NCBI GenBank assembly: GCA_934548045.1
Contig: CAKTEM010000007.1
Coordinates: 57,105 to 121,104, forward strand
Reading direction: 5' to 3'
Source of the DNA: an uncultured Faecalibacterium sp.
GTDB lineage: Bacteria > Bacillota > Clostridia > Oscillospirales > Ruminococcaceae
Length of the DNA: 64,000 nucleotides
The notes beneath the pieces were generated by a model. It ran no database searches, was not told the DNA's origin, and worked only from the letters and a program-made list of their open reading frames with translations. Of this stretch, positions 60,556-61,060 are shown one piece after another. Positions within the stretch are counted from its first letter, which is position 1. The number at the start of each line of letters is the position of its first letter. The translations under genes were made by a program, and so were the position numbers.

Positions 60556-60584
60556 TTGACATTTTTCAGGGGAGACTCTATAAT
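60556..60584 (+). promoter_or_regulatory. Consensus sigma-70 promoter of a short convergent transcript (candidate RNA antitoxin)
   Basis: TTGACA (60556-60561), 17 nt, TATAAT (60579-60584); a terminator hairpin lies only about 100 nt downstream. Confidence 0.55.
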
Positions 60585-60590
60585 AAGTTA

Positions 60591-60690
60591 TAGAAAAGGT
60601 GCTGTCCTGCAATGGGTCAGTTCCCGTACCCTATGCAATCAAAAAGATTGACCGCACGAGTTTCCGAGGCTGGGCGGTCAATCTTTTTTG
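60591..60690 (+). ncRNA. Candidate small RNA of about 100 nt (type I antitoxin candidate) ending at bidirectional terminator
   Basis: Bracketed by a perfect -35/-10 and a gattgaccgc ... gcggtcaatc TTTTTT terminator; no credible ORF (only a 13-codon ORF with weak RBS); 3' end overlaps the 3' end of the minus-strand small toxin-like ORF. Confidence 0.4.
60646..60690. terminator. Bidirectional intrinsic terminator shared by convergent small RNA and small ORF
   Basis: AAAAA gattgaccgc (10-nt loop) gcggtcaatc TTTTTT. Confidence 0.6.
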
Positions 60691-60797
60691 TTATGCTTCT
60701 CATCAATGTACTGCATGATCTTCAACGTGATGTCGACGGCCTCGTAGATCACAGTGAACACGAGCGTCAGCAACGCCAGAACTTCCAGCAGAGTCAT
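60678..60797 (-). CDS. Small hydrophobic peptide (39 aa), Fst/Ldr-like type I toxin candidate
   Basis: MTLLEVLALLTLVFTVIYEAVDITLKIMQYIDEKHNKKD: single TM plus charged tail; RBS ggaagg; minus-strand promoter TTGCCA-17-TATAAT at about 60967-60996 gives a roughly 160-nt 5' UTR. Confidence 0.45.
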   Translation of the reverse strand: MTLLEVLALLTLVFTVIYEAVDITLKIMQYIDEKHNKKD

Positions 60798-61019
60798 CGT
60801 GCATCCCCCCCTCGCCTTCCGGCACCGGGAAGATTCGCTTTTCAAAAAAGTCCTTTTCCCCGGTATACCGGTTCATTCCGTGGAATGGTTTGGTATCTGG
60901 GTACGGGAGCATGACCACCTGTATTGCAGGCAGCACCTTACCGCCCTTTATCCGGGCGGTATTTTTATTATAACATCGTTTGTACCGCTTGGCAATCGCG
61001 CTTTTTTGCGGCTTTCCTC

Positions 61020-61060
61020 TTGACAGCTCTGTATCTACTGTGTATACTGTACATGTACAG
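61020..61060 (+). promoter_or_regulatory. Promoter with overlapping palindromic operator for GntR(YtrA)-ABC operon
   Basis: TTGACA (61020-25), 17 nt, TATACT (61043-48); perfect 14-bp palindrome CTGTACATGTACAG (61047-61060) overlaps -10 and the TSS. Confidence 0.55.

Follow-up and report, generated by a model that had tools for sequence, protein, structure and literature searches.

The 64,000-nucleotide stretch of contig CAKTEM010000007.1 examined here, from an uncultured Faecalibacterium sp., is referred to as the window, and all coordinates are window positions. At 60556–60997 it contains a module of about 440 nucleotides (nt) in which a gene for a small hydrophobic peptide and a gene for a small RNA (sRNA) converge on one terminator. 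This module is likely a peptide/antisense-RNA toxin–antitoxin (TA) module of type I, with a layout like that of the par locus. Comparison of its sequence with metagenomic relatives places it in an undescribed superfamily in gut Clostridia. Transcription, toxicity and all RNA–RNA interactions at the locus are inferred from the features described below.

Layout of the locus

On the plus strand, a promoter of the form TTGACA-17-TATAAT (60556–60584) matches the consensus at 12 of 12 positions. It precedes a candidate antitoxin sRNA of about 100 nt (60591–60692), whose ends are placed from the promoter and the terminator. The minus-strand promoter, TTGCCA-17-TATAAT (60995–60967), matches at 11 of 12 positions and has a TG extension. 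From this promoter and the terminator, a toxin mRNA of about 325 nt with a 163-nt leader is predicted at 60960–60636. The scan for promoters, which like the Rfam scan spanned 2.5 kb around the locus, returned 5 promoter-like sites compared to 1.3 expected from shuffled sequences.

The predicted mRNA contains an open reading frame (ORF) at 60797–60678, including the stop codon, which encodes the candidate toxin, a peptide of 39 amino acids (aa): MTLLEVLALLTLVFTVIYEAVDITLKIMQYIDEKHNKKD. A Shine-Dalgarno (SD) sequence of seven G residues, GGGGGGG, can be read upstream of it at 60811–60805. AlphaFold models the peptide as one helix over residues 3–38 with a predicted local confidence score (pLDDT) of 89. 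Its N-terminal half is strongly hydrophobic, with a hydropathy maximum of 2.64 at residues 3–17.

Both genes end at a bidirectional intrinsic terminator (60641–60688, both strands), a perfect 15-bp inverted repeat with arms at 60641–60655 and 60674–60688 and a loop of 18 nt. Because an A-run and a T-run flank its stem, termination is possible on both strands. This common terminator gives the sRNA and the mRNA about 50–57 nt of perfect complementarity at their 3′ ends, an overlap that is essentially the terminator itself.

A first-pass annotation of this stretch had already described much of this arrangement. Its perfect plus-strand promoter, its small ORF with a ribosome-binding site, its toxin 5′ untranslated region of about 160 nt and its plus-strand RNA of about 100 nt without a credible ORF are all found again here. 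The near-consensus minus-strand promoter is also present, with its position refined and the TG extension added. The strong bidirectional terminator exists as well, but its limits move from 60646–60690 to those given above. The candidate type I TA reading of the locus is supported by the conservation of the module, the coding selection on the ORF, the non-coding nature of the sRNA and the invariance of the sRNA promoter, which are discussed next. Two features did not appear in that annotation, namely a motif found in the same sense in both RNAs and a predicted switch that sequesters the SD.

Conservation and distribution of the module

A search with a degenerate pattern of the RNA motif retrieved 57 metagenomic loci, mostly from the human gut. 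These correspond to 38 full-length unique modules (44 including copies at contig ends) with 19 peptide variants. In the module alignment, the toxin −35 box and the sRNA −35 box delimit the conserved block, outside which the sequences are unrelated. Eight distinct chromosomal contexts are found among the 34 modules with usable flanks. The window peptide has close homologues in a large protein collection, and their neighbourhoods are similarly unrelated, with DUF3793 and peptidase M20 genes in one case, YitT and P-II genes in another, and the epimerase and GntR genes in the window. In all 8 contexts the module has its own terminator. Since promoter and terminator are conserved with the module and not with a downstream gene, a longer mRNA that would run from the plus-strand promoter into such a gene is ruled out.

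The sRNA promoter is invariant in its −35 box, which is TTGACA in 41 of 41 unique modules, and its −10 box is TATAAT or TATACT. The toxin −35 box, in contrast, is poor and variable in relatives (TTTTCT, TTGTAG and others), although these keep the extended TGn −10 box and the spacing of 17 nt. Judged from the alignment, this extended −10 box compensates for the poor −35 box. Conservation in relatives thus extends to the sRNA promoter, but not to the −35 box of the toxin promoter. A strong antitoxin promoter combined with a weak toxin promoter is the usual arrangement in TA systems. The sRNA was also considered as a coding gene. This was rejected, as 10 of the 19 variants have no ATG ORF and one more has a bare start codon, and no ORF is conserved in relatives.

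The 39-aa ORF behaves differently. Its ratio of nonsynonymous to synonymous variation (pN/pS) is 0.32 in frame, compared to 0.70 and 1.66 in the two shifted frames, and all indels within it in the module alignment are multiples of 3. By these sequence measures, the ORF is under purifying, coding selection.

The family was extended by an exhaustive peptide-profile search, by contig look-ups and by an nhmmer profile of the sRNA promoter and 5′ domain. This extension yielded many more modules of the same architecture with increasingly divergent toxins, which form at least 10 divergent families besides that of the window. The exhaustive search of 1.84 billion representatives found 32 proteins only, all of the window peptide's family. 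Among 185,579 species-representative genomes, the window-type peptide is found in Lawsonibacter asaccharolyticus only; on this distribution alone, the window would probably derive from a related gut member of the Oscillospiraceae. The nhmmer profile, on the other hand, recovered every module, including those beyond the reach of the peptide search. The invariant sRNA promoter and 5′ domain are therefore an effective probe for further loci. Apparent “orphan” sRNA matches had a divergent toxin gene opposite in all inspected cases with enough flank.

A second sRNA-like gene occurs beside a divergent module on an unverified “Bacteriophage sp.” scaffold from human faeces (L082, MT838975.1). This gene, at 986–1105, combines a related 5′ domain (AGAAGGCACUG...GGUCAGCCCUUUUGG) with a promoter of the form TTGACA-18-TATACT and a terminator of its own, and the opposite strand lacks a hydrophobic ORF. 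From its sequence, it may be an orphan relative of the antitoxin that acts in trans.

One copy of the module is present in the 64-kb window. Three modules occur in tandem at other loci (L037, L053, L030, L040 and L081), and further contigs carry two or three modules (L027, L031, L035, L056, L006 and L010). These clustered paralogous modules are diverged and are either arranged head-to-tail or separated by a few kb. Toxin family and terminator loop differ from module to module, but the sRNA 5′ domains are near-identical. Such tandem arrangement of paralogous modules is where cross-talk, or the avoidance of cross-talk, would matter.

Some alleles are altered within the toxin gene. At L031 (7377–7493) and L041 (8046–8162), a 117-nt insertion replaces the SD of an otherwise intact toxin gene, for which L065 provides the intact allele. 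The insertion folds very stably (−62 kcal/mol) and was not seen elsewhere among the fetched loci. On sequence, this allele looks like a natural knock-out. One database peptide, P0034, contains an in-frame insertion of about 77 aa in mid-peptide. P0034 is also among the versions, with P0003, P0008, P0016, P0027 and P0029, that read into 14–17 extra residues because the A6 run (the KK codons, within the terminator stem; 60681–60692 in the window) is one base longer or shorter. This change in A-tract length could be a sequencing error or a phase-variable C-terminal extension.

The end of the ORF and the terminator occupy the same DNA. The conserved C-terminus N-K-K-D-stop is encoded in all modules by AACAAAAAAGATTGA (60681–60692 in the window). 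This sequence is also the 5′ arm of the terminator stem, and its A-run, read on the opposite strand, is the U-tract of the sRNA terminator. As the C-terminus is encoded within the terminator stem, the peptide tail is constrained by RNA and protein function alike.

In the window, the module is located in the gap that the first-pass annotation had assigned to it, with an aldose 1-epimerase gene (PF01263) on one side and a GntR regulator gene followed by ABC transporter genes on the other. A perfect 14-bp palindrome, CTGTACATGTACAG, lies at 61047–61060 (plus strand) on the promoter of the GntR–ABC transporter operon, where it overlaps the −10 box of the TTGACA-17-TATACT promoter at 61020–61048. 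It is probably the operator at which the GntR-family protein, whose gene follows directly, controls its own expression.

RNA structure and the same-sense motif

Both RNAs are predicted to be highly structured. The sRNA folds with −38.2 kcal/mol (z = −4.2 compared to shuffled sequences), and the toxin mRNA with −119.5 kcal/mol (z = −4.0). In the consensus structure, the sRNA consists of a 5′ hairpin, a C-rich single-stranded linker and the terminator. Consensus folding reveals compensatory changes in the terminator of relatives, from CG to UA and from GC to AU. The 5′-terminal hairpin of the toxin mRNA (60961–60939, minus strand), placed from the promoter scan and the mRNA fold, also has compensatory changes in relatives, and the L081 family lacks it. 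The Rfam scan at E ≤ 1 gave sub-threshold chance matches only, with 15–21 bits compared to thresholds of 40–50.

Read on the plus strand, the 5′ hairpin of the toxin mRNA has the form of an intrinsic terminator, in which TTTTTATTAT follows a stem of 8 bp. An sRNA transcript that reads through would therefore end exactly at the toxin transcription start and be a full-length antisense RNA. As a conserved plus-strand terminator for such a long antisense RNA, the hairpin was rejected because, as read from the alignment, only about 11 of 18 representatives have its T-run.

The SD of the toxin mRNA is predicted to be sequestered by its own leader. In the consensus fold, the SD is paired with an upstream CUUCCC in 18 of 18 sequences; in this fold, its partner in the window is the local anti-SD element CUUCCCGG (60832–60825, minus strand). 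In minimum-free-energy (MFE) folds, 28 of 29 modules have a paired SD, and on average over these 29 modules about 9.4 kcal/mol is needed to open it together with the AUG. The anti-SD can alternatively pair with a purine-rich element, termed T (CCGGGGAAAAGG, 60863–60852, minus strand), and the two states are predicted to be of comparable energy. The helix between T and the anti-SD covaries over five families (CCGGGAA/UUCCCGG, CCGGGGAAG/CUCCCCGG, CCGGGAGGG/CUCCCCGG, UCGGGAG/CUCCCGA and UCGGGAAGGCG/UGCCCCCGA). In these models, the choice of the anti-SD between SD and T looks like a translational switch.

In addition, the two RNAs contain a motif of 36–41 nt in the same sense, AAGGUGCUG...GGUCA(U)GYUCCCGUACCC, which forms an inverted repeat at the DNA level. 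The sRNA copy, AAGGUGCUG...GGUCAGUUCCCGUACCC, is located at 60596–60631 on the plus strand, and the leader copy, AAGGUGCUG...GGUCAUGCUCCCGUACCC, at 60939–60899 on the minus strand; each is recognized by its similarity to the other. The motif pattern has 2 matches in the window compared to 0.00 expected. For the window module, the same-sense score is 39 compared to an antisense score of 12 (z = 13.8), and a weak nhmmer self-match supports this similarity. The same-sense similarity is significant in all 10 testable families (z = 2.7–13.8). Same-sense scores over these families are 18–39, whereas antisense scores are 11–18 and correspond to background. Family-specific variants of the motif are found in both RNAs, for example CUCCCUACC in L071 and L074, GCUUUCCAUCCCGCA in L027, GCUCCUUACC in L040 and CACCUUUCCGG in L081. 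Because each family's own variant occurs in both RNAs, the motif evolves in concert.

The 3′ half of the motif is C-rich and resembles an anti-SD. In the leader copy this half is CCCGUACCC, and it is the partner of the SD in the MFE fold of 11 of the 29 modules, including that of the window. In the sRNA copy, the C-rich block lies within the single-stranded linker that joins the 5′ hairpin to the terminator. Since this block is single-stranded in the sRNA and is predicted to pair with the SD in the leader, it may be a trans copy of the leader's anti-SD. The leader motif was also considered as the main lock on the SD in cis. This was rejected, because deleting or mutating it raises the predicted SD accessibility only from 0.10 to 0.25 or 0.20 on average.

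Interpretation and comparison with known systems

In the favoured explanation, which is likely, the weak minus-strand promoter would produce an mRNA of about 325 nt that encodes a membrane peptide of 39 aa with a single helix. Within this mRNA, the long leader would hold the G-rich SD paired, either with the local C-rich anti-SD or with the similar C-rich block upstream. The convergent promoter of consensus strength would produce the non-coding RNA of about 100 nt. Repression would most likely begin when the complementary, module-specific terminator loops touch, and a duplex would then form. This duplex would lead to degradation of the toxin mRNA and/or lock it in an untranslatable state. The C-rich linker of the sRNA, a sense copy of the leader's inhibitory block, may also occupy the SD or T in trans.

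This explanation agrees with what defines type I systems in two respects. The locus encodes a non-coding RNA that is complementary to the toxin mRNA, given the transcription inferred for both. The peptide is shorter than 60 aa, hydrophobic and predicted to be helical with a charged C-terminus, although its uncharged run is short and its tail neutral. The terminator overlap of about 50–57 nt is the sole extended, module-specific complementarity between the two RNAs, and its loops differ among modules, with 16 distinct loop sequences.

Several results weigh against the TA interpretation. The uncharged run of the window peptide is just 13 residues, its net charge is −2 and its tail, KHNKKD, is net neutral, whereas typical type I toxins have cationic tails. 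The hydrophobic helix followed by a charged tail that was originally annotated is thus less typical of such toxins than that annotation implied. None of 25 peptide variants matched a toxin family of Pfam, NCBIfam (both at E ≤ 10) or PHROG, although very weak profile matches may be hidden by HMMER filters. Likewise, a profile search of PDB sequences at E ≤ 10, in which the Fst and PepA1 peptides were presumably included, gave no match. Association with plasmids had no match, and association with phages is limited to the single unverified scaffold L082; a pattern scan of viral contigs was empty. Removal of the cis motif leaves predicted SD accessibility unchanged in the window module.

The same is true of most tests of pairing beyond the terminator, where complementarity is short and generic. 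An extended duplex between the sRNA 5′ domain and the SD and start region has −31.7 to −33.6 kcal/mol in RNAduplex, yet shuffled sequences do equally well (z about 0), and it was rejected. An apparent compensatory change in this duplex, GGGUCA:UGACUC versus AGGUCA:UGACUU, is not kept in modules M23, M34 and M12. The duplex between the linker and the SD has a mean of −15.5 kcal/mol, compared to about −12.5 for shuffles and −7.8 for a control window in the ORF interior. Its z is negative in 25 of 29 modules, with a mean of −0.97 and p ≤ 0.05 in 4 of 29. Cognate pairs have no advantage over non-cognate pairs within the window family (p = 0.87). Across families, a cognate signal for linker and SD at p = 0.056 with 7 representatives went to 0.76 and 0.85 with 10–11.

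Pairing of the linker with T gave no cognate signal (p = 0.26). Because the positive control, the cis helix, fails as well (p = 0.14), these permutation tests are low in power. In the models, anti-SD action of the sRNA linker in trans, generic across the superfamily, is plausible.

Some of these observations would also suit a different function of the peptide. It could be a regulated small membrane protein with a non-toxic physiological role, for example in transporter modulation or stress response, whose level the convergent sRNA tunes by antisense control. The atypical net charge of −2, the neutral tail and the short uncharged run fit such a protein, as does the location of the loci on chromosomes beside housekeeping genes and not on plasmids; purifying selection indicates that the peptide sequence matters in either case. 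Yet this role is improbable, given the diverged paralogues in multi-copy and tandem arrays, the at least 8 unrelated contexts and the conserved asymmetry of a strong antitoxin and a weak toxin promoter. Heavy translational sequestration and the disrupted natural alleles (the SD-replacing insertion, the in-frame ORF insertion and the A-tract frameshifts) point in the same direction. Such features are usual for type I toxin loci, but unexpected for a housekeeping micro-protein. It is very hard to credit that the module is merely a selfish repeat, like a miniature inverted-repeat transposable element (MITE), with ORF and promoters only incidental to it. Many insertion contexts, and inverted repeats close to both ends, recall such elements, but the repeats lie inside the conserved unit and are not terminal. 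Moreover, the promoters are conserved with their asymmetry of strength, selection on the ORF is purifying and frame-specific with in-frame indels only, and copy number is low, with one copy in the 64-kb window.

The remaining alternatives concern the same-sense motif. It may be a common binding site for a protein or ligand, or an aptamer, by which both RNAs are co-regulated; this is compatible with a TA module, but unlikely. Conservation does extend beyond the C-rich block, with AAGGYGCUG and a hairpin in both RNAs in 10 of 10 families. A similar stem (GGUGCUG/CAGCUCC) is possible in both copies, and no cognate-specific RNA partner is detectable. Changes in this stem are nevertheless one-sided, without compensatory pairs, and the predicted structural contexts of the two copies differ. 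No Rfam riboswitch or protein-binding family matches, and a closing helix GGUGC:GUACC proposed for the motif is refuted by family L071, which has GGCGC against CUACC. The near symmetry of the module (promoter, motif, terminator, motif, promoter) would instead suit a functionless motif, the relic of an ancestral inverted duplication in which the toxin promoter and leader gave rise to the sRNA gene, kept alike by gene conversion. The inverted copies are about 300 bp apart, and family-specific variants common to both are what gene conversion yields. A mere relic is also rather improbable, because the motif ranks with the best-conserved parts of both RNAs in at least 10 families whose peptides are less than 60% identical over the first 30 residues. 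Repeated conversion should also erase the systematic central difference between GGUGGUCAUGC and GGUCAGC, and the 3′ half of the motif is a predicted partner of the SD. As a mechanism that is likewise rather unlikely, the antitoxin could act chiefly as a sense-strand mimic of the leader's inhibitory element and secondarily as an antisense RNA, or as a competitor for a protein or RNase. Under mimicry, the leader motif would normally occupy T or the SD and keep translation off; once the leader is lost or refolds, as could follow 5′ processing, the element would come from the sRNA in trans. Alternatively, the sRNA would compete with the leader for a common protein or RNase. As the element is generic across the superfamily, one mimicking sRNA could silence several paralogous toxins, and the module-specific terminator loops would then give cognate recognition.

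With the TA interpretation retained as the likely one, the locus can be compared to known systems. Type I TA systems are hard to detect by homology. Those of Clostridia are described almost solely from C. difficile (PMC6563280). The module adds a whole superfamily in abundant human-gut Oscillospiraceae (Lawsonibacter-like), with at least 10 peptide families and a matching sRNA family; Pfam, NCBIfam and Rfam contain none of these. The toxin and antitoxin genes of C. difficile modules such as CD2517.1-RCd8 and CD0956.2-RCd10 converge and overlap, as found here in the same bacterial class (PMC6563280). The C. difficile type I toxins are likewise small and hydrophobic with charged C-termini, and have no homology to toxins of other genera. 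They differ in their length of 50–53 aa, their lysine-rich tails and their location near CRISPR arrays or in prophages, and the sections of PMC6563280 cited here mention no common same-sense motif for their modules. No sequence relationship between C. difficile type I toxins and the window peptide family was found.

In B. subtilis, the RNAs of txpA/RatA, bsrG/SR4, bsrE/SR5 and yonT/SR6 also converge and pair at their 3′ ends, and the SD is partly sequestered. Decay in the TxpA/BsrG type depends on RNase III. In the txpA/RatA and bsrG/SR4 type, complementarity is 100–140 bp, and SR4 both promotes decay and tightens SD sequestration (PMC6562991). This dual mechanism is of the kind proposed for the present module. 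The overlap here is only about 50–57 nt, and the peptides have no detectable homology to those of Bacillus. The convergent 3′ overlap noted in the first-pass annotation thus exists, but it does not have the txpA/RatA and bsrG/SR4 geometry to which it was likened, and the match is poorer than that with par. Prophage regions harbour five of the 14 potential type I systems of B. subtilis (PMC6562991), among them txpA in the skin element, bsrG and yonT in SPbeta, and bsrE in P6.

The closest precedent for an sRNA C-rich linker that acts on the SD is found in the S. aureus antitoxins SprA1AS and SprA2AS. In SprA1AS, a non-overlapping 5′ domain pairs with the translation initiation region. The trans-acting domain is cognate-specific there, whereas here it would be a generic C-rich sequence facing a G-rich one, without cognate specificity. 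SprA2AS is cis-encoded, overlaps the toxin 3′ end and acts in trans (PMC6393315).

In its architecture, judged from sequence, the module is closer to par (Fst/RNA II) than to txpA/RatA. In par-like loci, the promoters converge, pairing starts at a bidirectional terminator, the SD is sequestered in a 5′ stem-loop and a helix protects the 5′ end (PMC7472228). All modules described here have convergent promoters and one bidirectional terminator, with an overlap that is essentially this terminator. An intramolecular stem-loop is predicted to sequester the SD, and the small peptide is predicted to be a single helix with a charged C-terminus; chromosomal par copies also exist in Firmicutes. The 5′ end here carries a conserved, covarying terminal hairpin and not an upstream helix, but this hairpin may serve the same role.

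The peptides themselves are less readily connected. The Fst/Ldr signature consists of P/D/S/T-xxx-G(C) in the helix and a Trp between the helix and the charged tail (PMC7472228). The window peptide has Leu at the Trp position (DITLK) and T11-LVF-T15 without Gly. Its description as Fst-like is therefore not supported, as Trp and TxxxG are missing and no Pfam, NCBIfam or PDB-sequence match exists; membership in Fst by profile was rejected because all profile searches were negative. The Fst prototype itself has Val at the Trp position. Several divergent relatives have both TxxxG and Trp, such as MTFEEVAILLTLLGGAIYVTFQITWTV... and MGWNDVLTLLTAIGGAVYMTFQITWTI..., and for this reason a distant relationship of the peptide superfamily to Fst/Ldr is possible on sequence.

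The main difference from par lies in the repeat. In par, the two RNAs owe the complementarity of their 5′ regions, which spans the SD and start codon, to the direct repeats DRa and DRb (PMC7472228). In the present module, the repeat is inverted, and the direct-repeat feature of par-like loci is thus absent: the RNAs carry it in the same sense, and antisense similarity is at background. The superfamily can be described as a par-like chassis in which complementary direct repeats are replaced by a sense-identical, concertedly evolving element. If this element is functional, it would represent a new RNA-antitoxin logic, mimicry of a cis-inhibitory element, and would predict cross-talk between paralogues.

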